Source: Phycisphaerales bacterium
GTDB lineage: Bacteria > Planctomycetota > Phycisphaerae > Phycisphaerales > UBA1924
Assembly (NCBI GenBank): GCA_043776515.1
Contig: JAYVRG010000050.1
Location: 138 to 64,137 of the forward strand
Reading direction: 5' to 3'
Length of the DNA: 64,000 bases
The notes under the pieces are model-generated. The model was not told the DNA's origin, did no database searches, and was given only the letters and a program-made list of their open reading frames with translations. Shown piece by piece: positions 8,566-64,000 of the stretch. The position numbers were made by a program, and so were the translations under genes. Positions within the stretch are counted from its first letter, which is position 1. Each line of letters opens with the position of its first letter.

Positions 8566-8682
8566 GTGCCACGGGTTCGCCGCCGCTTTGGGCGGCAACC
8601 CGTGCGATGTTCGTTGGGCATCGTGCGCTCCCTTCGCGCATCACGGGTTGCCCGCTCAGGGCAGCGGGCGAACCCGTGGCAC
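8566..8682. mobile_element. Family-1 REPIN-like element (117 nt: two inverted REP hairpins plus a central small hairpin)
   Basis: The left arm is GTGCCACGGGTTCGCCgccgctttgGGCGGCAACCCGTG. The spacer has a TGCGC-tcccttc-GCGCA hairpin. The right arm is CACGGGTTGCCCgctcagggcagcGGGCGAACCCGTGGCAC. It is about 88 percent identical by eye to the reverse complement of 31638-31755. Confidence 0.85.
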
Positions 8683-8818
8683 GGGCGTGCTCCGTGGAAT
8701 GGACATAGAATCTGATGAGGTGTCAGATGTGCCTGCACGTTTCGATCCAACTCCCAGCCGACCTTGAGGAACACATTCGGCGCGAGGTTGTCGATCTGGA
8801 CAGCGTTGCGAGAAAGGA

Positions 8819-10906: not shown

Positions 10907-10951
10907 TCAGGGCCGCGGCGGCCCGGACATGGGCTGGTAAGCCCATGCCAC
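10907..10951. repeat. REP-like double hairpin (family-2 unit)
   Basis: tcagggccgcggcggcccgga is followed by catgggctggtaagcccatgccac. Confidence 0.8.
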
Positions 10952-20788: not shown

Positions 20789-20943
20789 GTGGCATGGGCT
20801 TACTAGCCCATGTCGCGGGCGCGGCGGCCGCGATCGGGGTGAAAGTCGGTAGTCTGGGGTAATCTGCTTCGGGCGAAGCGCCCGAACATGGGGCTGGTAA
20901 GCCCATGCCACGAAAACACATGGGCCGGTAAGCCCATGCCACG
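20789..20943. mobile_element. Family-2 MITE-like composite element (155 nt)
   Basis: The left end is GTGGCATGGGCttactaGCCCATG. The right end is CATGGGGCtggtaaGCCCATGCCACG followed by CATGGGCCggtaaGCCCATGCCACG. The core contains ttcgggcgaagcgcccgaa, as at 54012-54030 in the opposite orientation. Confidence 0.85.
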
Positions 20944-25750: not shown

Positions 25751-27181
25751 ATGCACGAAGATCAAACGCCTGATATTGATATTCGTGCCACGGGTTCTCA
25801 TGCCACGGGTTCGCCGCCGCTTTGGGCGGCAACCCGTGACAAGACCGATGGAGTCATTGGATATCGTGCGCTCACTTCGCGCAGCACGGGTTGCCCGCTC
25901 AAAGCAGCGGGCGAACCCGTGGCACGGGCGGCAACCCGTGCGGGGAACGATGGGGTCAAAGGTCGTCGTGCAGTCGCCGCGCGGAGCACGGGTTGCCCGG
26001 CGAAGCGCCGGGCGAACCCGTGGCACGGTCGAATCGTTGGCACGATTGCGATCTTGCTTGCCACGGTGGCTCACGCGCAGTTGCTGGACCCGACGGTGAA
26101 GCCGGAAGTCTCAACACTGCCGCCACTCGAATTGCCCAAGCCCGACGAGAAACCCGCGGCGACGAAACCCACTGCTCCGGGCGCGGCCGATCCGGTGCGC
26201 TCCGCGCAGAACAACGCCGCTGCCAACGAGATCACGCCGGAACTCGACGAGATTGTTTCCAATGGGCTTAAGTATCTCGTCTCGGATCAAGGGCCGGACG
26301 GCTCCTTCGGCCAGGGGCGCTACGGCAAGAACATCGCCGTGACCGCGCTCGCCTGCATTGCGCTGATGGCCGACGGAAACACGCCGGGGCGCGGGCGCTA
26401 CGGCAAGAACGTGCAGAAGGGTTTGGAGTTCGTGCTGGCGTCATCGACGGAGACCGGCCTGCTCGCGGCGGATTCCACCAACGGCCCAATGTACGGGCAC
26501 GGGTTCGCCGCGCTTTTTCTGGGCGAGGTGTACGGCATGACCAAGGGCGGCGGAGAGACGCCGCAATCCGCGAAGGTCCATGAGGCGCTCATCAAGGCGT
26601 GTACGTTGATCCAGCGCTCGCAGAACTCCGAGGGCGGCTGGCGCTACAACCCGGTGCCGTACGACGCGGACATCTCGGTGACCATCTGCCAGATCATGGC
26701 GCTGCGCTCGGCCCGCAACGCGGGGATCGAGGTGCCCAAGGAGACGATCGACAAGGCGATCGAGTACGTCAAGCAGTGCCAGAACTCCGATGGGGGATTC
26801 CGGTATCAGGCGTCGGCGGGCGTGTCGGCGTGGCCGCGCAGCGCGGCGGGCGTGGCGGCCCTCTACTACGCGGGCATCTATAAGGACGACGCGATTGACC
26901 GGGGTGTGAAGTATGTCAACGAGAGCGCGTTCCCGGGCAAGAATCAGGGCAACACCAGCGCGCATTATTTTTACGGCCAGTATTACTCGGTGCAGACGAT
27001 GTATCTCGCGGGCGGCGAGCCGTGGGCCAAGTGGTGGCCCGCGGTGCGCTCGGAACTGAAGAACAAGCAGCAGCCCGACGGCTCATGGGCGGACCCATCG
27101 GTGGGTCCGGCGTATGGCACGGCGATGGCGCTGATCGTTTTGCAAATGCCCAAGCGATTCTTGCCGATTTTCCAGAAGTGA
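25751..27181 (+). CDS. Prenyltransferase/squalene-cyclase-repeat (alpha/alpha toroid) protein with a repeat-derived N-terminal extension
   Basis: Repeats are PDGSFGQGRYGKN, NSEGGWRYNPVPYD, NSDGGFRYQASAG and QPDGSWADPSVG. The only in-frame ATG or GTG (25751, 25745) lies upstream of the REP cluster 25785-26026. The hydrophobic segment IVGTIAILLATVAHAQ follows at 26033. Confidence 0.7.
   Translation: MHEDQTPDIDIRATGSHATGSPPLWAATRDKTDGVIGYRALTSRSTGCPLKAAGEPVARAATRAGNDGVKGRRAVAARSTGCPAKRRANPWHGRIVGTIAILLATVAHAQLLDPTVKPEVSTLPPLELPKPDEKPAATKPTAPGAADPVRSAQNNAAANEITPELDEIVSNGLKYLVSDQGPDGSFGQGRYGKNIAVTALACIALMADGNTPGRGRYGKNVQKGLEFVLASSTETGLLAADSTNGPMYGHGFAALFLGEVYGMTKGGGETPQSAKVHEALIKACTLIQRSQNSEGGWRYNPVPYDADISVTICQIMALRSARNAGIEVPKETIDKAIEYVKQCQNSDGGFRYQASAGVSAWPRSAAGVAALYYAGIYKDDAIDRGVKYVNESAFPGKNQGNTSAHYFYGQYYSVQTMYLAGGEPWAKWWPAVRSELKNKQQPDGSWADPSVGPAYGTAMALIVLQMPKRFLPIFQK
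25785..26026. mobile_element. Cluster of family-1 REP/REPIN units (one partial hairpin, one full REPIN, one half REPIN)
   Basis: gtgccacgggttc (partial) comes first. The full unit spans 25800-25926, with spacer ggatatcgtgcgctcacttcgcgca. Then ggcggcaacccgtg...cacgggttgcccggcgaagcgccgggcgaacccgtggcac follows. Confidence 0.85.
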
Positions 27182-31620: not shown

Positions 31621-31637
31621 GGAACTTCCTATTCAAC

Positions 31638-31755
31638 GTGCCACGGGTTCGCGTGCTGCTCTGAGCGGGCAACCCGTGATGCGCGAAGCGAACGCACAAT
31701 ATCCAACGAACTCCCGCACGGGTTGCCGCCCAAAGCGGCGGCGAACCCGTGGCAC
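31638..31755. mobile_element. Family-1 REPIN-like element (118 nt) in the murE-murF intergenic spacer
   Basis: Its reverse complement aligns with 8566-8682 along the whole length, with the same two arms and the same central gcgcgaagcg...cgcac hairpin. Confidence 0.85.
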
Positions 31756-31800: not shown

Positions 31801-33729
31801 TCACCCGCCCAAAGCCAATGACGCGCCGGCGGTCATGTCTTCACCATCGTCGCGATCGTCGTCTGTTCGCGCGGCCGCCAGCTCACGGACGGCGATCCCA
31901 CGCTCACGCAGCGCGGCCCGGGCCACCTCGCGATCATCGAAATGCCGCGTGATTGTCGCCCCCTTCTTCGCCGGGTCGGGCAATATCTGATAGTCCTCGT
32001 GCCCCTTGCCCGCGATGATGATGGTGTCCCCCGGCTTGGCCGCGGTGATCGCCAACCGAATGGCCCGCTCGCGGTCGGGTTCCACGACGACACCTCCCGT
32101 GCCACGGGTTCGCCCGCTGCTTTGAGCGGGCAACCCGTGCTCCCCCGCACGCACACCCGCGAGTATCTCCTCGATAATCCCCCCCGCGTCCTCCGTCCGC
32201 GGATTGTCACTCGTCACCACCACCCGATCCGCCATCTCCGCCGCAACTTTGCCCATGCGCGGCCGCTTGGTCCGGTCCCGATCACCGCCGCACCCGAACA
32301 CACACCAAAGTTCGCCACCCGCGACACGCCCCGGCATCGGCCCGGTGCCGATAGCACTCGTGCCGCGGCCGAGGTCATGTTTCTCACTGGGTTCTGAAGC
32401 CGCGCGCCCCATCGCCCCGCGCAACACCCCCAGCACCGTCGCCAGCGCATCATCGGTGTGTGCGTAATCCACGAACACCTGGATCGGAGCCCCAATCGCC
32501 GTCACCGGCTCCAGCCGACCCGGCGGCGCGCTCGCCTTCTCCAGCGCGCCCGCGATGATCTCGAAGCTCAGGGCATCCTCATCCGTCCCACCCCAGAGCG
32601 CGTGTACCGTCGCCACCGCCTGCAGCGCGTTCATCACGTTGAACGCACCAACCAATGGCACGCGGCAGACACAGTGCCCCCACGGGCCCGTGAACTCCAC
32701 ATCCGTCCCTTCCGTCGTCGCACCCATGACCCGCGCGCGGCAGACGGTTTCGGGAGCGGTTCCGCCAACGATCGGAAGGGTGGCACTGGCAGCTTGCTGC
32801 CAGTGGTGCGTGCCTTGTGCTCCCGACACGGGCAGCAAGCTGCCCGTGCCACCCGATTCTGATCCCGTGCCACCCAATACTGATATGGATCCCTCCACCT
32901 TGCACCGCACCACCCGCACGCCCGACTTCATCCCCTTCACCATCCGCGAGTGCCCCGCGTCTTGGATGTTCACCACCGCCACGCCGTCTGTGGGGAGATG
33001 CTCAAACAGCATCGCCTTGGCCGCGGCGTATTCCTCCATGGTTTTGTGATAATCCAGATGGTCGCCGGTCAGATTCGTGAACACCGCCGCGTTCCAGTGC
33101 AGCGCGCCGACGCGCCGCTGGTGCAACGCATGGCTGGAAACCTCCATCACCGCCGCCTGACACCCAGCGTCGTGCATCCGCGCGAAGGTGCGGGAGATTT
33201 CCAGCGCGGGCGGCGTCGTCAGCAAGGCCGCGGCGGTCTCCACGCCGTCATCAATCACCACCGTGCCGATCAATCCACAGCGAATCCCCAGCGCGTTGAG
33301 CATCTGGTGGATGAGAAACGTCGTCGTCGTCTTCCCGTTGGTCCCCGTCACCCCGATCACCCGCATCTTCGAGCTCGGCTCGCCATAGAACCGCTCCGCC
33401 AGCCGCGCGATGGCGAGGTTGGTATCCGTCGCGGTCAGCAGCGCGACGCCCTGGGTGGCCCGCCGCTCCGCGGCGGCTCCCCTTTCCTGATCTGTCGCTC
33501 CCAACCGAAACCCCGGATCATCCGTGAGAATCGCCGCCGCGCCCGCCGCGATCGCCCCCGCCACAAACCCCTTCCCATCCACCTTCTCCCCCTTGCGGGC
33601 GATGAAGAGCGACCCGGGCATGACGGTACGGGAGTCCTCGGTGATATCGCACACGCGCAGGTTGCTCACCTCGTCGCCCGGGTTGACGATCCGGACATCG
33701 AGTCCGTGGATGAGGTCGGCGATCCGCAT
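31801..33729 (-). CDS. murE: UDP-N-acetylmuramoyl-L-alanyl-D-glutamate--2,6-diaminopimelate ligase carrying in-frame repeat insertions (643 aa, unusually long)
   Basis: VTGTNGKTTTTFL, DYAHTDDAL, GCGGDRDRTKRPRMG and AGKGHEDYQ are present. The start is set at MRIADLIHGLDV (33729). It contains the repeat elements at 32099-32139 and 32778-32875. Confidence 0.9.
   Translation of the reverse strand: MRIADLIHGLDVRIVNPGDEVSNLRVCDITEDSRTVMPGSLFIARKGEKVDGKGFVAGAIAAGAAAILTDDPGFRLGATDQERGAAAERRATQGVALLTATDTNLAIARLAERFYGEPSSKMRVIGVTGTNGKTTTTFLIHQMLNALGIRCGLIGTVVIDDGVETAAALLTTPPALEISRTFARMHDAGCQAAVMEVSSHALHQRRVGALHWNAAVFTNLTGDHLDYHKTMEEYAAAKAMLFEHLPTDGVAVVNIQDAGHSRMVKGMKSGVRVVRCKVEGSISVLGGTGSESGGTGSLLPVSGAQGTHHWQQAASATLPIVGGTAPETVCRARVMGATTEGTDVEFTGPWGHCVCRVPLVGAFNVMNALQAVATVHALWGGTDEDALSFEIIAGALEKASAPPGRLEPVTAIGAPIQVFVDYAHTDDALATVLGVLRGAMGRAASEPSEKHDLGRGTSAIGTGPMPGRVAGGELWCVFGCGGDRDRTKRPRMGKVAAEMADRVVVTSDNPRTEDAGGIIEEILAGVRAGEHGLPAQSSGRTRGTGGVVVEPDRERAIRLAITAAKPGDTIIIAGKGHEDYQILPDPAKKGATITRHFDDREVARAALRERGIAVRELAAARTDDDRDDGEDMTAGASLALGG
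32099..32139. repeat. Solo family-1 REP hairpin inside the murE coding sequence
   Basis: GTGCCACGGGTTCGCCCGCTGCTTTGAGCGGGCAACCCGTG is translated on the minus strand as ..EHGLPAQSSGRTRGT.. within ILAGVRAG-[insert]-GVVVEPDRERAI. Confidence 0.85.
32778..32875. mobile_element. Family-3 element (77 nt) plus an extra terminal fragment inside the murE coding sequence
   Basis: GGGTGGCACTGGCAGCTTGCTGCCAGTG...CACGGGCAGCAAGCTGCCCGTGCCACCC has the same architecture as 40883-40961. It is followed by a second CCCGTGCCACCC. Confidence 0.8.
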
Positions 33730-33831: not shown

Positions 33832-35415
33832 ATGAGCCAGCTAGAATCGCAGCGTTTTTCGAGCATACGAGCCGGTTTTGCCATCGCGGCCCTCGCAACT
33901 GCGGCGGCCGTTCACGCGCAGCCGGGGGTGATCTATGCGGATGCGCACGCTCCGGCGGGCGGCAACGGCGCATCTTGGGCCACGGCGTTTCGGGATTTGC
34001 AAGATGCGATTGCGGCGGCGAATGCGGACCCCGATCACTACGTTGGAAGTCAGATACGTATAGCGCAGGGTATCTACACGCCTGATCGCGCCAGCGGCGA
34101 CCGGAGCATGGCCTTTACACCTTCCAGCGCAATTTCCCTTATGGGCGGATTTGCGGGACTTCTGGCCAGCAATCCCGATCAACGCGACACGAGCCGATTT
34201 GTGACTGTCTTGTCTGGAGACCTCGCCCGGAACGACGGCTCTGACTTCACAAACTACGAGGACAACTCTCGATGTATCGTTGATCTCAGCGACCAAGACC
34301 TCGCGGTACTCGATGGCGTGACAATCCGGGGCGGTTCTGCCCCTGAGTCGGACGATCCATTCGCAACGAGAGGTGTCGTTACGGGTGTGCGCAAGGCATC
34401 GAACGGCCAAGTGATTCAGAGAAATGTCATTCTGCATCGATGCCGACTCGAGCAGAATTTGGCCGGGCTTGGTACACCAATCGTTCGCGGTCCGATCGTC
34501 TTGATGTTCGATTGCAAAGTATTTGGAAACTCAACGATCGAGGCACCAACAGTGTTCGGAGCGACTCCGTTCCTGATCCGTTGCGAGTTTCGCGGGAATC
34601 GGGTTCGCTCAGTATTCGTCCCCGAGTTCTCGCCGGGACTCATCGGCGGAATGGTTGCGGATGCTTTCCCGATGCACGTCTTGACATGTCTCTTTGCCGA
34701 CAACCTCTGCGAGGGTCCCGGCGCGATTGTGTGCAATGGCTTTTCGACTTCGGAGATTTCGCACTGTACATTCGTGGCCCATCCGACGCTGCCACGCCCG
34801 GCGATCGCGGTGCTGCTTGGCTCTCGCATCTCGCTGCGAAACTGCGTCTTTGCGCCCGGAGGCGGCGCACCATACCCGTCGGCGTTTGTTCACGTCGCAG
34901 CGGCGCAGATATTCCAAGACGACATTGACTCTTCCAATCTATTCTCAAATGGCCAAAGTGGCATCTCGGTCACGTCGAGCCCATCTTTCCCAGTTTCTGT
35001 GCGAGCGGGCGATCCCGCGTTTGTGCTGCCCCGTGGTACCGACAACGATCCAGCAACTTGGCGAGACAACAACTATCACTTGCTGGCGAGTTCGCCCGCG
35101 ATCGACACCGCAGGCAGTTCAAATGAGTATCCATCGAATGACTATCGAGACTTGGATGGCACTTCACCTTTCGATGCACCAACGGTGGTCAACCACGGCA
35201 CGGGGCTGACTCCATATCTCGATCTGGGATGCTATGAGTTCACCGAACGTCTCTGTCCCGCCGACTTCAACGCCTCCGGCTCTCTGACTCCCGCCGACAT
35301 CTACGACTTCCTGAACGCCTGGCTCGCCGCAGACCCCCGCGCGGATTTCAATGGCTACGGCCTCAGCGCACAGGACATCTTCGACTTCCTCGGCGCATGG
35401 TTCGCTGGTTGCTGA
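33832..35415 (+). CDS. Secreted parallel-beta-helix-like protein with a C-terminal GC-type dockerin-like module
   Basis: Signal peptide MSQLESQRFSSIRAGFAIAALATAAAVHAQ is present. The C-terminus is CPADFNASGSLTPADIYDFLNAWLAADPRADFNGYGLSAQDIFDFLGAWFAGC. G+C is lower than in the core genes. Confidence 0.7.
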   Translation: MSQLESQRFSSIRAGFAIAALATAAAVHAQPGVIYADAHAPAGGNGASWATAFRDLQDAIAAANADPDHYVGSQIRIAQGIYTPDRASGDRSMAFTPSSAISLMGGFAGLLASNPDQRDTSRFVTVLSGDLARNDGSDFTNYEDNSRCIVDLSDQDLAVLDGVTIRGGSAPESDDPFATRGVVTGVRKASNGQVIQRNVILHRCRLEQNLAGLGTPIVRGPIVLMFDCKVFGNSTIEAPTVFGATPFLIRCEFRGNRVRSVFVPEFSPGLIGGMVADAFPMHVLTCLFADNLCEGPGAIVCNGFSTSEISHCTFVAHPTLPRPAIAVLLGSRISLRNCVFAPGGGAPYPSAFVHVAAAQIFQDDIDSSNLFSNGQSGISVTSSPSFPVSVRAGDPAFVLPRGTDNDPATWRDNNYHLLASSPAIDTAGSSNEYPSNDYRDLDGTSPFDAPTVVNHGTGLTPYLDLGCYEFTERLCPADFNASGSLTPADIYDFLNAWLAADPRADFNGYGLSAQDIFDFLGAWFAGC

Positions 35416-35496
35416 TTCACGAATCAAGCGTCTCTTTTTCCGCCGCGGCGAGAGAACCTTCACACGTCCCTCGCGTTTCCGTGGTACATTCCCGGC

Positions 35497-36440: not shown

Positions 36441-36690
36441 GGGTGGCACGGGCGGCTTGCCCGCCCACGGTGTTGCCCACCGGGCCACGGCTCACCGTGC
36501 CACGGGTTCGCCCGCTGCTTTGAGTGGTCTACCCGTGATGCGCGAAGCGAGTACACGATTCTCCGCGCTCCCACGCATCGCTTCCAACATCACGGGTTGC
36601 CCGGCGAAGCGCCGAGCGAACCCGTGGCACGTCCAAGTCGTGTTCTTGCGTGCCACGGGTTCGTCCGCCGCGGCGGACAACCCGTGGCAC
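36441..36690. mobile_element. Composite repeat cluster: family-3 half element, a full family-1 REPIN (36497-36630) and a solo perfect family-1 hairpin (36650-36690)
   Basis: The parts are GGGTGGCACGGGCGGCTTGCCCGCCC; GTGCCACGGGTTCGCCCGCTG...GAGCGAACCCGTGGCAC; and GTGCCACGGGTTCGTCCGCCGCGGCGGACAACCCGTGGCAC. Confidence 0.85.
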
Positions 36691-39391: not shown

Positions 39392-39450
39392 CATGGGCAG
39401 GATGCCCATGCCACGGACAAAAGAACCGCCGCGGAGCGGCGGACCACCCA
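39392..39450. repeat. Family-2 solo hairpin plus the CCGCCGCGGAGCGGCGG hairpin, upstream of murA
   Basis: CATGGGCAGGATGCCCATGCCACGG is identical to 60810-60834. CCGCCGCGGAGCGGCGGACCACCCA follows. Confidence 0.8.
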
Positions 39451-49943: not shown

Positions 49944-52900
49944 ATGTCTTTGAGGAATTGTATGAGGTCCGGGCTGGCCGCAATGGCCGCTCTGTCCGCG
50001 CTCTGTTGTTCCACAGCCAACGGCCAAGTGGTGGTCAGTCAGATCTACGGCGGCGCTAGCGCTGCTGGCTCCACCTACACCCGCGACTTCGTCGAGTTGT
50101 TCAACCGTGGCACCACCACTGTGAACCTCTCCACGTACTCACTCCAGTACGCCGCGACCACCGGCACCACTTGGACCAAGGTCAATCTCACCGGCTCCAT
50201 CGCGCCCGGTAGCTATTACCTCTTCCTCGGAGCCACCGGCACCAGCGGCGTCGCCCCGCCAGTCGCCGACCTCTCCGGCACGCTTGACCTTGCGTCCACC
50301 ACCGGCAAGGTTGCACTCGTTGCCAACCAGACCGTGCTCACCGCTGGCCAGGCAGCATTCGCCCCCGGCACCAACGGCGTCGTTGACTTCGTCGGCTACG
50401 GCGCGACCACCAACGGCTTTGAGGGTGGCGCCGCCACCGGCGTGAACCTCTCCACCATCCTCTCGGTCAAGCGCCTCAACGGCGGCTGCACCGATGACAA
50501 CAACAACTTCACCGACTTCGCCGCGCCCGCCACCCCCCTGGCTCGCAACAGCGCGTCCCCCGCGAATGTCTGCGCCACGCTGACCGGCGCCTGCTGCCTC
50601 GCCTCCGGCGAGTGCCGCACGCTCTCCGCGACCGCGTGCGCAACTGCGGGCGGCACCTATGGCGGCAACTTCACGCTCTGCACCGCCGGCACCTACACCA
50701 TGACCTCCAATGCCGTCGCCTTCGACGACCTCACAACGCAGACCGTCGGCCGCATCAACCTGACCACCGCCCAGGCCGACGATGCCTCGCAGGCCGTGCA
50801 GCTCACTCCCTTCCCCTTCTTCTACTTCGGCTCCCCGATCGTCCGCTACTCCGTGAACTCCAACGGCTGGGCCGCCTTCTACGCCCAGGCATCCGCCACC
50901 AACTACGGCACCGGCGAGACCATCCCAGCCATCGCCGTCCCCAACATGATTACATCCGTCTACCGGCGCGACCTCAACGGCACCGGCAAGAACTGCTGGC
51001 AGCTCGTCAAGGGCACCGCGCCCAATCGCCAACTCGTGATCCAGTGGGACCAGTACGTTCCCTTCGGTTTCCTCACGACCAACACCTTCGAGCTCATCCT
51101 CAACGAGTCCACCAACGTCATCGAGTATCGCTACGCCACGCTCAACGCTGGCGTCCCCAACGTCTGCGGCCTTGAGGAAGTCTCCGGCACCGTCGGCGTG
51201 CTGGTCCCCAACGCCTCGGTCATCTCCAACGCCTCGTTCCAGTTCACACCCATCGGCGAGTGCCCGGTGATCGGTGCCTGCTGCAACGCTGGCGCGTGTA
51301 CCTCTGGTGATGCTGTTGGCTGCCTGGCCTCCGGCGGCATCTTCAGCGGCCCTGGTTCTTCCTGCAATCCCAACCCCTGCGCGACCGGCGCCTGCTGCCT
51401 CCCGAACGGAACCTGCGCAGCGCAAACCGCTGGCCAGTGCGCTGGCAACAGCGGCGTCTACCAGGGCGACAACGCCATCTGCGGCGCGATCGCATGCCCC
51501 GCTTCCGGCTCTTGCTGCGTCGCCACGGCGTGCACGGTCGGCTTCCAAGCCAACTGCACCGGTGTCTTCACTGCCGCGGGCGTCTGCTCCCCCAATCCCT
51601 GCGCCACACCCTGCTGTGACGCGAGCACCGCCGCCTGCACCCTTGTCGCCACTACCGGCGGCACCTGCAACGGCACGCTCGGTACCGCGGGCGCCACCTG
51701 CGCCGCTACCGTCTGCCCCTCTGGCGCTTGCTGCAACACCACCACCTTCGTGTGCTCCGTGACCGGCCCCAGCGGTTGCGCCTTCACCTACGCTGGAACC
51801 GGCACCACCTGCACCACCAACCCCTGCCCCGCTCCGGCCAACGATCTCTGTGCGAACGCGGCCGTCCTTTCCGGTTCTGGCCCCTTCCCGCTGCAGACGC
51901 TTGGCCAGAACAACAGCTCCACGGACACCACGGCCTTTGCACCCGCCGTCTGCGCTTCCTCCAGCCGTGACGTTTGGTACTCCTTCACCCCCACCAGTGG
52001 CGCTTTGTCTTACACCTTCACCACCTGCAACTCCGTGACCCAGACCGGCAACGGCACCGGCGGCGCGTTCGACACAGTGCTCTCCATCCACAGCGCCTGC
52101 CCCATCACCGGCGCCAACAATCTCCAGACCGGCCTCTCCAGCAACTGCAACGACGACAGCTGCACCGGCGGCATTGGTGCCTCCACCATCGCCGGTCTGA
52201 CACTCACCGCCGGACAGACTTATCTCATCCGCGTGGCACGCTTCAGCACCGGCACAGGCGGCACCTTCCGCCTGGACATCATCACCGAGCCCTACGGTGC
52301 CTGCTGCTCTTCCACCAGCACCTGCATTCTTTCCGCTCAATCCGCCTGCACCGGCACCAATGTCTTCGTCGGCGGCGGCACCCTCTGCAACACCGCCGGC
52401 ATCTGCAACGGTGCCTGCTGCGTCGCCGCCACCGGCGTCTGCACCTTTACCACCGCCGCTTCCTGCACCGGCGTACACGGCGGCGTCGGCAGCGCCTGCA
52501 CCACTACCTTCTGCCCCACAACTACTTGCTGCAATGACGCCACCGGCGCCTGCACCACCACCGGCACCGCGGCCTGCCCCGCCGGCACAACCAACAACGG
52601 CACCGGCACCTGCACCGCGTCTCCCTGCCGCACCACTACCTGCTGCAACACAACTACCGGCGCTTGCACCGTGACCGGCACCGCGGCCTGCCCCGCTGGC
52701 ACGACCGCGAACGCCGCTACGACCTGCTCTCCCCAGCCCTGCCCGCAGCCCACGGCCTGCTGCACGGCTGGCGGCTGCTGCACGCTCGCTTTCGCCGCCA
52801 GCTGCATCGGCACTTCCGGCACCGCTCTGTCCTGCACTCCCAACCCCTGCAGCAACCCGCCCCCGGCCAACGATGCCTGCGCCGGAGCCACCTCCATCGC

Positions 52901-53792
52901 CATCAACTCCGGTATTGTCGCCGAAAGCTGCCTCGCCACCGCTGAAGTTGGCGATGTCGCTGGCACCTGCACCGCTGGCACCTTCGCCAGCATGTGGTGG
53001 TCCTTCACCGCTCCCTACACCGGCACCTTCACCGCCAGCACCTGCGGCAGCTCCTATGACACCGTTCTCGTCGCCTTCTCCGGCACGTGTGCCGCACTCA
53101 CCCAGGTCGGCTGTAACGATGACACCTGCGGATTGCAGTCCACCATCGCCACCCTCGCCTTCACTGCGGGTCAGACCTATTTCATCCGCGTCGGCTCCTT
53201 CGGCACGACCACCGGAACGATCAACCTGATCGTCACCGGCAACAACCCCGCCGGCTCATGCTGCGCAAGCAGCGGCTCCTGCACGCTGACCGACGCGGCC
53301 GCCTGCACCTCCGGCACCTGGACCGCCGCTGGCACCTGCACCCCCAACACCTGCCCGCAGCCCGGCACCTGCTGCGATAACGCTCAGGTCTGCACCTTCG
53401 GGCTCCCCGCCGCCTGCACCGGGACCTTCTCGGCTGGTGGCTCCTGCACCCCCAACCCCTGCACCCCGCCCGGCGTCTGCTGCCGCGGCTCTACCTGCAC
53501 CACCGCCATCACTACGGCCGCGGCCTGTGCCGCCTCCATCACCAGCGGCACCGCTGGCTCTAACTTCCCGACCGGCACTCTCTGCAACGGCGTGCCCGTC
53601 TCCAACAGCCCCTGCTGCTATGGCGACTACAACAAGGTCAACGGCATCACCGTTGCCGACATCTTCAACTTCCTGAGCGACTGGTTCGCCGGGGAGCCCT
53701 ACGCCAACGTCGGCGGCTCCGGTGCCCCCGCCACCCTGACCGTGCAGAACATCTTCGACTTCCTCGCCAACTGGTTCGCTGGCGGCTGCTGA
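49944..53792 (+). CDS. 1282-aa secreted protein: lamin-tail domain, about 15 Cys-rich 33-38 aa repeats, two PPC-like domains, and a C-terminal GC-type dockerin-like module
   Basis: The ATG at 49944 follows GGAAGAAAGG (the ORF track starts at GTG 49935). The LTD segment is VVVSQIYGG...RDFVELFNRG. Repeats have the form GACC..G.C...C.G...G..C..NPC. The tail is DIFNFLSDWFAG...NIFDFLANWFAGGC. Confidence 0.75.
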   Translation: MSLRNCMRSGLAAMAALSALCCSTANGQVVVSQIYGGASAAGSTYTRDFVELFNRGTTTVNLSTYSLQYAATTGTTWTKVNLTGSIAPGSYYLFLGATGTSGVAPPVADLSGTLDLASTTGKVALVANQTVLTAGQAAFAPGTNGVVDFVGYGATTNGFEGGAATGVNLSTILSVKRLNGGCTDDNNNFTDFAAPATPLARNSASPANVCATLTGACCLASGECRTLSATACATAGGTYGGNFTLCTAGTYTMTSNAVAFDDLTTQTVGRINLTTAQADDASQAVQLTPFPFFYFGSPIVRYSVNSNGWAAFYAQASATNYGTGETIPAIAVPNMITSVYRRDLNGTGKNCWQLVKGTAPNRQLVIQWDQYVPFGFLTTNTFELILNESTNVIEYRYATLNAGVPNVCGLEEVSGTVGVLVPNASVISNASFQFTPIGECPVIGACCNAGACTSGDAVGCLASGGIFSGPGSSCNPNPCATGACCLPNGTCAAQTAGQCAGNSGVYQGDNAICGAIACPASGSCCVATACTVGFQANCTGVFTAAGVCSPNPCATPCCDASTAACTLVATTGGTCNGTLGTAGATCAATVCPSGACCNTTTFVCSVTGPSGCAFTYAGTGTTCTTNPCPAPANDLCANAAVLSGSGPFPLQTLGQNNSSTDTTAFAPAVCASSSRDVWYSFTPTSGALSYTFTTCNSVTQTGNGTGGAFDTVLSIHSACPITGANNLQTGLSSNCNDDSCTGGIGASTIAGLTLTAGQTYLIRVARFSTGTGGTFRLDIITEPYGACCSSTSTCILSAQSACTGTNVFVGGGTLCNTAGICNGACCVAATGVCTFTTAASCTGVHGGVGSACTTTFCPTTTCCNDATGACTTTGTAACPAGTTNNGTGTCTASPCRTTTCCNTTTGACTVTGTAACPAGTTANAATTCSPQPCPQPTACCTAGGCCTLAFAASCIGTSGTALSCTPNPCSNPPPANDACAGATSIAINSGIVAESCLATAEVGDVAGTCTAGTFASMWWSFTAPYTGTFTASTCGSSYDTVLVAFSGTCAALTQVGCNDDTCGLQSTIATLAFTAGQTYFIRVGSFGTTTGTINLIVTGNNPAGSCCASSGSCTLTDAAACTSGTWTAAGTCTPNTCPQPGTCCDNAQVCTFGLPAACTGTFSAGGSCTPNPCTPPGVCCRGSTCTTAITTAAACAASITSGTAGSNFPTGTLCNGVPVSNSPCCYGDYNKVNGITVADIFNFLSDWFAGEPYANVGGSGAPATLTVQNIFDFLANWFAGGC
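52518..52745. repeat. Near-identical 114-nt tandem duplication (38-aa Cys-rich unit x2)
   Basis: The units are TTTCCNDATGACTTTGTAACPAGTTNNGTGTCTASPCR and TTTCCNTTTGACTVTGTAACPAGTTANAATTCSPQPCP. The nucleotide copies start at 52518 and 52632. Confidence 0.85.
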
Positions 53793-53841
53793 TCGCATCC
53801 GTCTGAAACCACGCGGTTCTACATCTCGGGTACACACCCCC

Positions 53842-53870
53842 AAAGCCCCCGCCATCCGGCGGGGGCTTTT
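53842..53870 (+). terminator. Strong intrinsic terminator after the Cys-rich giant gene
   Basis: AAAGCCCCCGCC atcc GGCGGGGGCTTT followed by t; the 12-bp stem starts 50 nt after the stop. Confidence 0.85.
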
Positions 53871-53877
53871 CATATCC

Positions 53878-54145
53878 GTGCCATGGGCTTTCCAGCCCAT
53901 GCGCCTCCGCTCCTGTGTGGCATGGGCGTCCCGCCCATGTGCCTTCGCTCCTGCGTGGCATGGGCTTTCCAGCCCATATGCTTTGGTTTCTTCATGGCCC
54001 GCCGCGGCGGGTTCGGGCGCTTCGCCCGAAACACTTCGCTCACAAGCAGCCCGACTCGAACTATCACCTCGCCACACACACACACCCAGCGCAGGGGTTG
54101 GAAGCCCATGCCACGCAAATCACGGGCGGGACGCCCGTGCCACGG
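53878..54145. mobile_element. Family-2 MITE-like composite element (268 nt) abutting tRNA-Arg
   Basis: Three left-type hairpins are present (GTGCCATGGGCTTTCCAGCCCATG, GGCATGGGCGTCCCGCCCATG, TGGCATGGGCTTTCCAGCCCATATG). The core is tggcccgccgcggcgggttcgggcgcttcgcccgaa. The right-type hairpins are ..GAAGCCCATGCCACG and CGGGCGGGACGCCCGTGCCACGG. Confidence 0.85.
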
Positions 54146-54162
54146 AGGTTGAAAAAAGGAAA

Positions 54163-60243: not shown

Positions 60244-60371
60244 CCAGAGCGGCTACCTTCGCGTGGCACGTTGGGTCTGCCGCGCCCGGAAACGCCGAAC
60301 TGGCGCGCTGCGATCCAAACTGGCTCTACCAAGTGCGCAACCTTCGCGTGCTTCGCCGATACTCTTGCTCC

Positions 60372-61601
60372 ATGTCCGACCCATATCCCCTGCTGCTTCG
60401 CCCGGTGATCCTGGAAAAAGTCTGGGGTGGGCGCCGTCTGGAGTCGCTGGGCAAGACGCTGGAGATACCGGGCGCGAAGTACGGCGAGAGCTGGGAGCTT
60501 GCGGACATGGCCTCGACGAGCGCATCGGGCGCGGGGGGCGGCGCGGTGCGGACGCTGATTGCCAATGGGGAACTGCGCGGCAAGACGCTTGGGGATGCTC
60601 GCGCGGCGTGGGGCGCGGGGCTGCTGGGTCTGCGTGGCACGGGCGTCCCGCCCGTGGTCTTGGGTGGCACGGGCTTTCCAGCCCGTGTTTCTGGTGCGAG
60701 TAGTTCGACGCAGGCGGAACTCGGGGCGATCCGCCCCGAGCCCGCCGCGGCGGGCCACGAAGCAAATGAACATGGGCTGGAAAGCCCATGCCACGAAGCA
60801 GCCAAGGCACATGGGCAGGATGCCCATGCCACGGACTTTCCACTGCTCATCAAGTTTCTGGATGCCAGCGAGAATCTGAGCGTGCAGGTGCATCCGTCGC
60901 CGGAGTACGCCGCGTCGCGCGCGGGGGCGTTCCTGAAGACCGAGTGCTGGTACATCATTGACGCGGAGCCGGGGGCGGTCATCTATAAGGGTCTGCGGCC
61001 GGAGGTGACGCGCGAAGAGTTCTCACGGCTGGCGCGGTCGGGGGCGGCGGGCGGACGCGCTCTGGTGGACGCGATGGTCGCGCTACCCGCGGTGCCGGGA
61101 GAGTGTCACAATCTGCCCAGCGGCACGGTCCACGCGCTCGGCGCGGGCGTGCTGGTGGCGGAGGTGCAGACCCCGAGCGACACGACGTATCGGTTGTATG
61201 ACTGGGGACGCACGGGGCGGGCGCTGCATGTGGAGGAGTCGATCGCGTGCGCGAGTTTTCCGGGAGAGCCGGCGCACGCCGCGTTGCCGCGGGGGATGAC
61301 GGTGGCGCGGTGCGAACCGGGGAAGACATCGGCGCGGCTGGTGACGACGGAGTTTTTCACCGTGGATGAGTTGCGCCCGGCGGTGGGCGATGTGCTCTCG
61401 GTGGAAGCGATTCTCGGCGCGGGCGGTTCGTGCGTGGCGATCGTGGTGCTGGATGGAGAGTGCGAGCTTGTCGATGGGCGCGCGTTTCAGCCCGTCGCGC
61501 TCAAACGCGGCGACACCGCGCTGATTCCGGCGGGAATCGGGCCACAAACGCTGCTGGCGGCGGGGAGCGGGTTGCGCGTGCTCGCGGCACGGGTGGTGTG
61601 A
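60372..61601 (+). CDS. manA: Type I mannose-6-phosphate isomerase carrying a 67-codon in-frame repeat insertion
   Basis: PVILEKVWGG, GESWELAD, FPLLIKFLDASENLSVQVHP, KTECWYII, SGTVHALG and QTPSDTTYRLYDWGR are present. The insertion is at 60634-60834. Confidence 0.85.
   Translation: MSDPYPLLLRPVILEKVWGGRRLESLGKTLEIPGAKYGESWELADMASTSASGAGGGAVRTLIANGELRGKTLGDARAAWGAGLLGLRGTGVPPVVLGGTGFPARVSGASSSTQAELGAIRPEPAAAGHEANEHGLESPCHEAAKAHGQDAHATDFPLLIKFLDASENLSVQVHPSPEYAASRAGAFLKTECWYIIDAEPGAVIYKGLRPEVTREEFSRLARSGAAGGRALVDAMVALPAVPGECHNLPSGTVHALGAGVLVAEVQTPSDTTYRLYDWGRTGRALHVEESIACASFPGEPAHAALPRGMTVARCEPGKTSARLVTTEFFTVDELRPAVGDVLSVEAILGAGGSCVAIVVLDGECELVDGRAFQPVALKRGDTALIPAGIGPQTLLAAGSGLRVLAARVV
60634..60834. 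mobile_element. Family-2 MITE-like composite element (201 nt) inside the manA ORF
   Basis: The left end is GTGGCACGGGCGTCCCGCCCGTG followed by TGGCACGGGCTTTCCAGCCCGTG. The core at 60720-60758 is ctcggggcgatccgccccgag followed by cccgccgcggcgggccac. The right end is CATGGGCTGGAAAGCCCATGCCACG followed by CATGGGCAGGATGCCCATGCCACGG. Confidence 0.85.
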
Positions 61602-62495: not shown

Positions 62496-62651
62496 GTGGT
62501 ATGGGCGTCCCGCCCGTGTTCGCACTATCAGAGCCGAGTGGCGTAAGCCGCCGGTCCCACGCGACCGACATCGCACCACAATCCACCGAGGGCTTACCCC
62601 CTGCGGCTCTGATTCGCACGCCCGAAACATGGGCTGGAAAGCCCATGCCAC
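62496..62651. mobile_element. Family-2 MITE-like element (156 nt) filling the comB/dinB-like divergent intergenic region
   Basis: The left end is GTGGTATGGGCGTCCCGCCCGTG and the right end is CATGGGCTGGAAAGCCCATGCCAC. Internal nested stems are tcagagccg/cggctctga and gtaagcc/ggcttac. Confidence 0.8.
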
Positions 62652-62665
62652 GAATACAATCAAGC

Positions 62666-63163
62666 ATGATCGACATCGCAACGATTCGCGTGATGCTGGA
62701 ATACACGGACTGGTCGAACGGGAAGCTGCTGGACGGCGCGGCGGGTTGCACAGATGAACAGCTTGATCGCGACTTGCAGATCGGACCCGGCACGCTTCGC
62801 CGGATTCTGCTGCACACGTACAACGGTGAGATGATCTGGTTCAAACGCTGGCGGGGCATCGTTGAGAATCCGTGGCCGGGTGAGGGGGAGCGGGTTGCAA
62901 TCGCGGAGTTGCGCGAGAGATTGGAGCGGAACACACGCGAGCGAGAGGAATGGATCGCGACGCTGACGCCCGGAGACGCCGCGCGAGTGCAGCAGTACCG
63001 GGACTCGAAGAGCAACCTGTTTCAGGCATCCCTCGGCGACATGCTGATGCAGGGCGTGATGCACACCAAGCACCATCAGGCCCAAGCGGTGAACGCGCTC
63101 AAGCGGCTCGGTGCGGCGTGGCCGGAACTGGATTACATGTACCGGGTGCGGAAGCCAGCGTGA
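62666..63163 (+). CDS. DinB-family (four-helix bundle, metal-binding) protein
   Basis: MIDIATIRVMLEYTDWSNGKLL, LLHTYNGEMIW and VMHTKHHQAQAVNALKRLG are present. Confidence 0.8.
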   Translation: MIDIATIRVMLEYTDWSNGKLLDGAAGCTDEQLDRDLQIGPGTLRRILLHTYNGEMIWFKRWRGIVENPWPGEGERVAIAELRERLERNTREREEWIATLTPGDAARVQQYRDSKSNLFQASLGDMLMQGVMHTKHHQAQAVNALKRLGAAWPELDYMYRVRKPA

Positions 63164-63247
63164 ACGTGCCTGAGATGACTTCCTCGCACGTTCGTACGGT
63201 TCTCAAACGTGGCTTGCTCTTCGCCGGCGAAGCCCGCGCCACACGCA

Positions 63248-63330
63248 TAGCCCGGGGCGCAAGCCCCGGGGTCGGGCTACCCAGCAACCCCCTCGGCATT
63301 TGGGTTCCCAGCCCGCCAAGCGGGCGGCAC
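63248..63330. repeat. Left flanking two-hairpin module of the Y1 transposase gene
   Basis: tagCCCGGGGCgcaaGCCCCGGGg ... aGCCCGCcaaGCGGGCggcac is the reverse complement of 63845-63931 (22/24 and 20/21 matches at the two hairpins). Confidence 0.85.
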
Positions 63331-63340
63331 AAAGCCGCCG

Positions 63341-63835
63341 TCAATCCAGAAATCGTTCTTCAAAGTCGATCTCGTGCTTCCGATACAGAATCTCGATCTC
63401 TTGGCGACAACTCATGGACTTGTGATGCCTCTCCTGATCCGCGACATACCGACGCACATCTTCTTTGTTGGACATGCTCACCGAGAACGCGCCATATCCA
63501 TCCTGCCAGCCAAACGGATGTGATGCGTATGTCTCGTGCATCCATTTCGAGGAGTTGGACTTTACAACCCGCGCCAACTCCGCTTCAGCGACGGTCGGGT
63601 GTCGGTACGTAAACACATGGACATGATCCTCGACGCCGTTGATGAGCACAGGCACGCACTCGAGTTTCTTCAGAATGCCCGCCATGTACGCGTGCAGGCG
63701 CGGCTTGATCTCCGCGATAATCTGCGGCTCGCGGTGCTTGGTGGACCAGACGAAGTGCGTCAGCAAGCAGGTGTAGGAATCGCCCATGCGGACAGAATAG
63801 TGGAAGGGCCGCGTGATGTGCAAGGAAGGAATCAC
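63341..63835 (-). CDS. Y1/HUH transposase of the IS200/RayT (REP-associated tyrosine transposase) superfamily
   Basis: LLTHFVWSTKHREP, HUH motif EDHVHVF, Tyr block FGWQDGYGAFSVS and YVADQERHH are present. The maximal ORF starts at GTG 63835; ATG 63787 (MGDSYTCLL) is the likelier start. Confidence 0.85.
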   Translation of the reverse strand: MIPSLHITRPFHYSVRMGDSYTCLLTHFVWSTKHREPQIIAEIKPRLHAYMAGILKKLECVPVLINGVEDHVHVFTYRHPTVAEAELARVVKSNSSKWMHETYASHPFGWQDGYGAFSVSMSNKEDVRRYVADQERHHKSMSCRQEIEILYRKHEIDFEERFLD

Positions 63836-63844
63836 ACGGTCTGT

Positions 63845-63931
63845 GTGCCGCCCGCTTCGCGGGCTTGATGCACGCGCGTGCGTATGAACATGGGCGAAAC
63901 CTACTACCCCCGGGGCTGACGCCCCGGGCTA
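63845..63931. repeat. Right flanking two-hairpin module of the Y1 transposase gene
   Basis: gtgccGCCCGCttcGCGGGCt ... cCCCGGGGCtgacGCCCCGGGcta is inverted relative to 63248-63330. Confidence 0.85.
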
Positions 63932-64000
63932 CGATTGTTTCGGCCGCGATGCGGCCTGCAAATCAGCAAAACAACAGACTCCGGCTCCAATCACGCCCGA

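Follow-up and report, generated by a model that had tools for sequence, protein, structure and literature searches.

Is a Y1/HUH transposase gene that stands alone between mirror-image hairpins a host-retained gene that looks after its repeats, an ordinary insertion sequence (IS), or something between the two? The question is raised by a locus in a 64,000-nt stretch of DNA from a Phycisphaerales bacterium (GenBank assembly GCA_043776515.1, contig JAYVRG010000050.1, positions 138–64,137 of the forward strand), the whole of which is referred to here as the window. A preliminary description made from the sequence had read the locus as a REPtron-like unit, i.e. a domesticated gene of the repetitive extragenic palindromic (REP)-associated tyrosine transposase (RAYT) type between inverted two-hairpin modules. 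Our analysis points instead to an insertion-type cassette, in which an intact Y1/HUH gene of TnpAY1 subclass 1.2 is probably accompanied by its cognate three-hairpin DNA modules, mobilized by the enzyme.

The cassette consists of the transposase gene between two inverted modules, the coordinates of which are given in Table 1. Read towards the gene, each module comprises a hairpin S, 8–12 nt ending in (G/T/A)TAG, a hairpin B, a variable spacer, a second S hairpin and the tail G(G/A)CAC. The tag of B (xTAG) lies 5′ of the hairpin on one strand and that of S (GTGYC) lies 5′ on the other; the outer S and B are arranged head-to-head across a short conserved linker, and B and the inner S tail-to-tail across the variable spacer. 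Such regularity of head-to-head and tail-to-tail linkers has been reported for REP dimers (Di Nocera et al., 2013). The inverted symmetry noted in the preliminary description was reproduced to the exact mismatch: the inner hairpin with its GGCAC (63310–63330) matched the inverted segment 63845–63865 at 20/21 positions (one mismatch), and hairpin B (63248–63271) matched the inverted segment 63908–63931 at 22/24 (two mismatches). Both hairpin sequences were unique in the window at up to three mismatches, and two matches were found in none of 100 shuffles. Whilst the hairpins listed earlier were all present and inverted, the modules proved to hold three hairpins per flank and not two; the outermost was recognized via close relatives (loci L082–L086 in our numbering, 64–71 % protein identity), and the left outer S aligned with the outer S helix of 52 modules. 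With covariance model R1, the training alignment of which contained both window flanks, the left module scored 68.6 bits (E = 6e-14) and the right module 73 bits (E = 6e-15). The gene was also, as had been suspected, lower in G+C content than its surroundings (54.8 % compared with 64.9 % for the window), which placed it among the 0.3 % of 447-nt windows with the lowest values. A simple promoter/terminator scan of 63100–64000 detected neither T-runs of the terminator type nor promoter-like sites. As the thermodynamic z-scores for DNA folding of the modules were modest in this GC-rich background (only −1.1 to −3.4), support for the structure was taken from covariation instead.

The modules were found to be a trait of the protein family. 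A metagenome scan with the protein yielded 80 loci with 36–50 % identity. Comparison of the 300 nt upstream of each gene with the reverse-complemented 300 nt downstream gave a median score of 76, compared with 28 for the direct-repeat control (65 loci with enough flank). Left and right flanks matched far better within a cassette (median 69.5) than between cassettes (median 18; p = 2e-22), and the two ends of a cassette therefore co-evolve. The S – xTAG-B – S layout was kept in the flanks of homologues with differing stem sequences, and the S hairpin with its G-R-C-A-C type tail was conserved beside homologous genes. R1 gave significant matches in 47 of the 70 loci collected solely by protein similarity; 58 of the gene-proximal modules were directed towards the gene (27 upstream on the gene's strand and 31 downstream on the opposite strand) and 10 were reversed, and a further 42 module copies were located nearby.

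In an alignment of 52 modules (A1), 97 % of cells were in standard pairs, and sliding the partner column lowered this pairing to 31–46 %. Eleven pairs, including seven of the eight pairs of helix B, changed on both sides, a result reached by 0 of 500 shuffles; the inner S helix, being fixed by the search pattern, was uninformative for covariation. One-sided change (G-U) was seen in only four of the 1029 cells and two-sided change in 96. This near-absence of G-U would fit a palindrome that is needed as DNA or on both strands.

The preliminary description had identified the ORF at 63341–63835 (minus strand), with its HUH motif, as a Y1/HUH transposase, and this was upheld by matches to Pfam Y1_Tnp (PF01797; E = 1.1e-21, 77.6 bits against a cut-off of 23) and to NCBIfam NF033573, ‘IS200/IS605 family transposase’ (68.2 bits against an equivalog cut-off of 55). 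Public gene calls start at ATG 63787 (148 aa) and not at GTG 63835; the 164-aa form of the ORF had no match in public assemblies because the called gene is the 148-aa form. The HUH motif corresponds to D54-H55-V-H57, the WQ motif to W94-Q95 and the catalytic motif to Y114-x3-Q118-x2-H121-H122 (YVADQERHH); D54-H55-V-H57 and Y114 aligned with their counterparts in 2f4f, 2ec2 and 2a6m in an alignment of PDB sequences. The tyrosine block had previously been located at FGWQDGYGAFSVS, which is in fact the conserved WQ strand; by alignment to the IS200/IS608 structures, the catalytic tyrosine is Y114 in ‘RRYVADQ’. Sixteen columns were invariant in 50 homologues (alignment A2), namely T16, R19, G51, D54, H55, H57, K76, W94, Q95, G97, F101, S104, Y114, Q118, H122 and E130. 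H121 was conserved in at least 90 % of this alignment, and the C-terminal tail was also conserved, with the family consensus ..KHxxExDERYVWD.

A search of PDB sequences with phmmer matched Sulfolobus IS200 TnpA (E = 7.6e-9), together with IS608 and ISDra2, and the Escherichia coli TnpA-REP structure 4er8 was absent from the matches at E ≤ 1. When the AlphaFold2 model (predicted local distance difference test score 92.5) was compared with the PDB using Foldseek, the top 29 matches were ISDra2, IS608 and IS200 TnpA chains (E = 7e-9 to 2.5e-7), with 4er8 in 30th place (E = 1.9e-5). Class-2 RAYTs carry the motif Y-x3-NP (Quentin et al., 2018; PMC6006769). Class-2 identity, and with it the RayT-type membership proposed initially, was rejected on the tyrosine motif (Y-x3-Q-x2-HH, not Y-x3-NP), the missing sequence match to 4er8 and the higher rank of the IS200-type folds.

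Subclass 1.2 of TnpAY1 is defined by the motifs DH[IV]H, WQ and Y-x3-Q-x2-HH, a median length of 148 aa and a conserved C-terminal tail (Quentin et al., 2018; PMC6006769). Judged by its motifs, length and C-terminal tail, the protein fits this subclass of the IS200 clade. In the same survey subclass 1.2 was listed as ‘REP: no’, with Cyanobacteria and Bacteroidetes as its taxa and 1.7 copies per genome at 36 % identity, and was set apart from IS200 proper as a low-copy group without IS ends. On motif grounds, subclass 1.2 is probably the same as the ‘IS200 Group 3’ of Bertels et al. (2017; PMC5581495), a RAYT-like outlier with no duplicates and no plasmid copies, whose flanking 16-mers are moderately repeated (21 occurrences). 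Those authors found it to be the IS200 group nearest the RAYTs and left the origin of the host-retained genes open.

Modules were far more numerous than genes. Species-representative genomes were scanned with the pattern AGCCCGCNNAGCGGGCGRCAC, representing the inner hairpin and tail, and at least 119 stretches were listed, mostly from metagenome-assembled genomes (MAGs) of Planctomycetota (including Phycisphaerales), Acidobacteriota, Armatimonadota and Verrucomicrobiota. A Y1 homologue was present in only seven of these listed stretches. A perfect xAG-footed hairpin was located 20–28 nt upstream in 59 of the 156 pattern matches listed, compared with 11 of 595 random positions, and R1 detected 150 modules in 79 of 100 listed loci. 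Among the matches listed there were 43 convergent pairs lacking a gene (gaps of −38 to 283 nt) and four that enclosed a Y1 gene, a ratio of approximately 10 : 1, as well as six divergent pairs and 56 unpaired modules. The Planctomycetota MAG Co_metawrap_1754, for example, had one gene cassette (L098) among the matches listed and at least four gene-less pairs (L093, L108, L145 and L159) with a core of approximately 150 bp, closely similar by eye. Solo modules (L100, L119, L154, L160, L179 and L186) and module pairs (L151, L194 and L198) were found in Phycisphaerales MAGs, and L031 held a tandem array with 5.2 copies of an 89-nt S+B unit. Gene-less pairs, solo copies and an array are the pattern of REPs, bacterial interspersed mosaic elements (BIMEs) and REP doublets forming hairpins (REPINs). 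The REPtron-like character proposed for the locus thus holds for the family, with its modules at independent loci, gene-less pairs and solo copies, but does not extend to the RAYT type, to domestication or to a link with the other repeats of the window.

One solo S-B-S module occupied an orthologous intergenic site in two Phycisphaerales species (L100, 4416–4521; L160, 6753–6859). The gene downstream of it is conserved and begins MSRPTLLILSQVYVP, and the module is either long-lived or functional at this site. In Co_metawrap_1754, the gene-less pairs were located within a larger inverted-repeat element (L093, 4680–5150; L145, 1350–1830; L108, 4850–5320; L159, 7080–7570). The outer ends of this element consist of a truncated B hairpin fused to approximately 60 nt of further repeat, a composite structure resembling a miniature inverted-repeat transposable element (MITE).

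Comparison of the insertion site between relatives indicated movement. In L206 (DegT 91 % identical) the stops of the DegT-like and DinB-family genes that border the cassette in the window are 3 nt apart, with no Y1 gene between them, and in L208 (DegT 83 % identical) 111 nt separate the two genes; both sites are empty. Two further relatives carry other genes at this position. L208 and L082 belong to one genome (GCA_044221735.1); in L082 the cassette lies between two transporter genes, and the product called there (P0007, 118 aa) shares 71 % identity with the window protein (68 % by tblastn over 149 aa). No synteny was found between the window locus and L082, the closest long-contig relative. 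The empty sites, together with the different location of the L082 cassette, therefore mean that the cassette itself moves. A sister strain (DegT 94 % identical) has the cassette at the same site with 95 % nucleotide identity, the stems being intact and the changes confined to spacers. Elsewhere in the family, units of 690–717 bp with 80–97 % identity were found in unrelated contexts, with sharp ends at the outer hairpin. From these comparisons the unit appears to behave as a discrete, low-copy mobile cassette and not as a fixed domesticated locus, contrary to the domestication assumed in the preliminary description.

An 11-nt duplication (GCTGATTTGCA twice) was seen outside the DegT-side outer hairpin when the sister strain (L211, 1620–1700) was compared with the window (63957–63990). 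In L083 (1347–2278; Y1 64 % identical), compared with the Logan assembly contig that carries the cassette (L001, 8580–10447), the cassette also adjoins a DegT-like 3′ end (74 % aa identity over 73 residues); it is flipped relative to DegT, and its other neighbour differs. This arrangement could be due either to inversion between the inverted modules or to an independent insertion.

The outer part of the module has a counterpart in Rfam. RF01687 (Acido-Lenti-1) was the only Rfam family matching the region, with 29.1 bits (E = 1.9e-4) at 63909–63957 on the plus strand and 24.2 bits at 63243–63270 on the minus strand, scores that are below the gathering score of 37 bits. This threshold was exceeded in relatives, namely by the modules on either side of the L098 gene (46.5 and 44.9 bits), by those of the gene-less pairs in L093 and L145 (44.9 bits) and by three copies in L180 (39.4–49.5 bits); other cassettes had sub-threshold matches that were symmetric and read outward from the gene. 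Comparison of the Rfam alignment with A1 revealed that outer S – xTAG – B, reverse-complemented, gives the RF01687 consensus. It comprises an 8-bp stem with a 4-nt loop, CUA, a linker of approximately 9 nt and a 5-bp stem with a UUC loop, the same as the outer part of the module; the third hairpin and the GRCAC tail of the full module lie outside the Rfam model. Weinberg et al. (2010; PMC2864571) described the motif from Acidobacteria and Lentisphaerae, where it is in some cases close to group II introns, and considered it, from its covariation, to be a probable RNA. Its annotation is that of a small RNA from these phyla, without any link to a transposase. No paper tying Acido-Lenti-1 to a transposase was found in a literature search, and no IS200/COG1943 gene context was found for the original copies in the supplementary files of the Weinberg study.

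REPtrons, reportedly found in E. coli and Pseudomonas (Nunvar, 2010; Bertels & Rainey, 2011; Ton-Hoang, 2012), are RAYT/TnpA-REP genes flanked by inverted REPs or BIMEs. The cassette resembles them in having a Y1/HUH gene between inverted, tagged GC-rich hairpins, two hairpin types in alternating orientation (as with the Y and Z REPs of BIMEs), gene-less inverted pairs (REPIN-like) and solo copies elsewhere in the family, and a low gene copy number. It differs from them in its IS200-clade protein (Y-x3-Q-x2-HH and not the Y-x3-NP of class 2), in its repeat unit, which is a fixed three-hairpin module of approximately 105–125 nt, and in its occurrence at different loci with empty sites in relatives and no dispersed modules in the window. 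The motifs, the 148-aa length, the C-terminal tail, the low copy number and the absence of IS200-type ends are all shared with published subclass 1.2 (PMC6006769), whereas the members found here come from Planctomycetota, Acidobacteriota and other phyla and possess inverted hairpin modules and gene-less derivatives. With IS200 proper (subclass 1.1), IS608 and ISDra2 the cassette shares the fold, the HUH and Y-x3-Q motifs, small size, hairpin sites beside the gene and insertion behaviour; IS200/IS605 elements, however, have asymmetric ends read on one strand, are usually present in multiple near-identical copies and often carry tnpB. Terminal inverted repeat-associated tyrosine transposases (TIRYTs) and their TIRtrons (Di Nocera et al., 2013), corresponding approximately to subclass 2.1, likewise have a Y1 gene between long inverted repeats which are also found as repeat families, but their class-2 proteins are longer, with a C-terminal helix-turn-helix, and their inverted repeats (consensus GGGG[AT][CG]A[CG]) are not hairpin arrays.

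Three other explanations of the locus have to be set against a mobile cassette. A domesticated and immobile REPtron in the strict RAYT sense, inherited vertically and only spreading or maintaining modules for the benefit of the host, would agree with the presence of the gene on a single NCBI contig, where it is assembled through inside 130 kb, with the retention of the cassette by the sister strain and of a solo module at an orthologous site in two species, and with the low copy number of subclass 1.2 and the lack of duplicates and plasmid copies in its likely equivalent. It is nevertheless unlikely, given that the site is empty in relatives with DegT proteins 91 % and 83 % identical, that the cassette of the closest relative lies elsewhere in a genome whose own DegT–DinB site is empty, that cassettes with sharp borders and 84–97 % identity occur in unrelated contexts, and that the G+C content of the gene is 10 points below that of its surroundings. 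The least probable of the three is an ordinary autonomous IS200 copy, with the hairpins as its usual subterminal ends and their symmetry incidental. IS200 is 707–711 bp long and the unit is approximately 700 bp; the best sequence and fold matches are the TnpA proteins of IS200, IS608 and ISDra2, the NCBIfam IS200/IS605 equivalog cut-off is passed and the cassette behaves as an insertion. Its ends, however, are mirror images over approximately 125 nt, and this is so across the family; the gene has DegT and DinB as neighbours and no tnpB beside it, its Y-x3-Q-x2-HH motif and C-terminal domain are those of subclass 1.2, and the window contains no near-identical second copy.

The hairpins might, as a third explanation, be elements acting at the RNA level, either Acido-Lenti-1 small RNAs or bidirectional terminators or attenuators, which would insulate the gene or control it and would not be substrates of the transposase. 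RF01687 does match both flanks, sub-threshold in the window and above the gathering score in the modules of relatives; covariation led Weinberg et al. (2010; PMC2864571) to rate the motif a probable RNA, and the hairpins of IS200 block read-through and translation, according to work cited in a passage of Di Nocera et al. (2013). An RNA function is very unlikely in view of the scarcity of G-U pairs, the lack of T-runs and promoter-like sites around the cassette, the occurrence of modules in both orientations, in convergent pairs and in tandem arrays and not in any set arrangement relative to adjacent genes, and the fact that the motif travels with the Y1 gene and the borders of the cassette. 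Several points also weigh against a mobile cassette with its own DNA sites. Y1 enzymes normally need asymmetric ends, and those of the cassette are mirror images. Comparison of filled and empty sites revealed no target-site duplication and no obvious conserved target. No further module was found in the 64-kb window using R1 or in the first 9.8 kb of L001 using a simple hairpin pattern. In Rfam the outer part of the module is curated as an RNA, and the hairpins could also, or instead, regulate gene expression, as in IS200.

If the locus is indeed a mobile cassette, the modules would be the cognate DNA sites of the enzyme. By analogy with IS608/ISDra2 TnpA and E. coli TnpA-REP, a dimeric enzyme would bind S and B in single-stranded DNA, such as that exposed at a replication fork. 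Where the cut falls would be set by the tags at the feet of the hairpins (xTAG 5′ of B and, on the opposite strand, GTGYC 5′ of S), with cutting and rejoining of the strand proceeding via a 5′-phosphotyrosine link to Y114. We infer the action on these hairpins, the preference for single strands and the positions of the cuts from these relatives. Owing to the mirror-image ends, each strand would offer one ‘forward’ module, and it may be speculated that this makes the system independent of the direction of replication. The same activity would mobilize gene-less pairs and solo modules in trans, in the manner of REPINs or MITEs, and the whole cassette more rarely, as the distribution of the copies suggests.

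The cassette is separated by 34 nt from the DegT-like gene and by 59 nt from the convergent DinB gene, beyond which lies ComB. The features of the cassette, its neighbours and the other repeats of the window are listed in Table 1.

Table 1. Features of the transposase cassette, adjoining genes and dispersed repeats in the 64,000-nt window
Feature	Position	Strand	Description
Cassette	~63209–63970		~760 bp; Y1/HUH gene between two inverted ~125-nt modules
Left module S-B-S	63209–63333	+	On the 3′ side of the gene; read towards the gene
Left outer S	63223–63237	+	GCCGGC gaa GCCCGC, one mismatched pair; followed by CCACAC
Left hairpin B	63247–63270	+	Foot ATAG; CCCGGGGC gcaa GCCCCGGG
Left inner S	63311–63330	+	GCCCGC caa GCGGGC with tail GGCAC; 10 nt from the stop codon of the gene
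Y1/HUH transposase gene	63341–63787	−	148 aa; ATG 63787, stop 63341–63343; P0001 100 % identical
Right module S-B-S	63842–63970	−	On the 5′ side of the gene; minus strand, read towards the gene; inverted partner of the left module
Right inner S	63845–63864	−	Minus strand GCCCGC gaa GCGGGC with tail GGCAC (plus strand GTGCC, 63845–63849)
Right hairpin B	63909–63932	−	Minus strand CCCGGGGC gtca GCCCCGGG; foot GTAG (plus-strand CTAC, 63929–63932)
Right outer S	63942–63956	−	Minus strand GGCCGC atc GCGGCC
DinB-family gene (context)	62645–63163	+	Pfam DinB; stop 45 nt from the left module and 59 nt from outer S
DegT/perosamine-synthetase-like aminotransferase gene, 3′ end (context)	63991–64000	−	Stop 63991–63993; gene leaves the window; seen from L001 gene 8580–9797 and orthologues
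GTG[GC]-headed REPs	2722–2740, 10928–10947, 20793–20812, 20919–20938, 39392–39410, 62628–62647		
GTG[GC]-headed REPs, symmetric clusters	53877–54146 (copies at 53882–54139) and 60634–60835 (copies at 60638–60828)		
Third dispersed repeat	8581–8687, 25824–26037, 31633–31700, 32094–32161, 36492–36641		

The window also contains a second REP family, CAYGGGC-n(3–6)-GCCCRTG with a GTG[GC] head on one side, of which there were 13 perfect copies compared with 0.04 expected. These repeats resemble the GTGG-type tagged REPs of Opitutus terrae (Di Nocera et al., 2013), and no cognate transposase for them was found in the window. In the preliminary description the terminal GTGCC/GGCAC of the modules was taken to be shared with the dispersed repeats of the window, and the cores at 60720–60758 and 53995–54030 were thought to have the same layout as the modules. 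The window repeats were considered as kin of the modules and rejected, as R1 gave only 12.7 bits (E = 0.2) at 60726–60813 and 14.7 bits (E = 0.07) at 53806–53935; the higher R1 scores in the window were those of both flanks and of the right flank read on its reverse strand (18.2 bits), 14.7 bits being the next best. The shared ‘GTG..C’ start is best regarded, on the sequences compared, as a resemblance of tags and not as evidence of one family.

Four of the REP hairpins, together with a two-hairpin core (60634–60835), lie in frame inside an ORF resembling type I phosphomannose isomerase (60333–61601, plus strand), which relative to PDB 1qwr has approximately 64 extra residues between residues 73 and 154. 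REP clusters lying within genes and in frame are known from earlier work (Di Nocera et al., 2013). Contig L001 ends at the equivalent of window position ~62630, at a REP copy (62626–62654) that is identical to 60769–60797, and the REPs therefore fragment short-read assemblies of the source organism. A third dispersed repeat forms a nested hairpin, CACGGGTT-GCCCGC...GCGGGC-GAACCCGTG-GCAC, and is sometimes tandem or inverted. Distant ORFs have in common a 65-nt coding repeat (35361–35425, 53645–53709 and 53735–53799) that, read by eye, appears to encode a C-terminal motif of the ..IFDFL..WFAG.. type, and internal Cys/Pro-rich coding repeats were present at 51347–53483.

What is new with respect to the literature is a REPtron/REPIN-like system run by an IS200-clade subclass that had been reported as REP-less, and the published picture of subclass 1.2 as repeat-less would thereby be corrected. 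For a wider proposal the arguments appear to us evenly balanced: that subclass 1.2 is the engine of a widespread, previously undescribed REP/REPIN-like system in Planctomycetota, Acidobacteriota and nearby phyla, that its module is the ‘Acido-Lenti-1 sRNA’, and that the cassette is still transposing, works from either strand and represents a living intermediate between IS200 and RAYTs. An orphan Rfam motif with 89 original representatives, whose function has been unknown since 2010, would gain an explanation as a DNA end or repeat module of a transposase family, and in annotation neither the term small RNA gene nor the term terminator should be applied to the modules. The compact 148-aa enzyme, with its well-defined covarying hairpin substrates, would be well suited to the biochemistry of single-stranded DNA cutting and joining. 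The family is a candidate for the stage at which IS200-type elements pass into REP-associated, host-retained genes.

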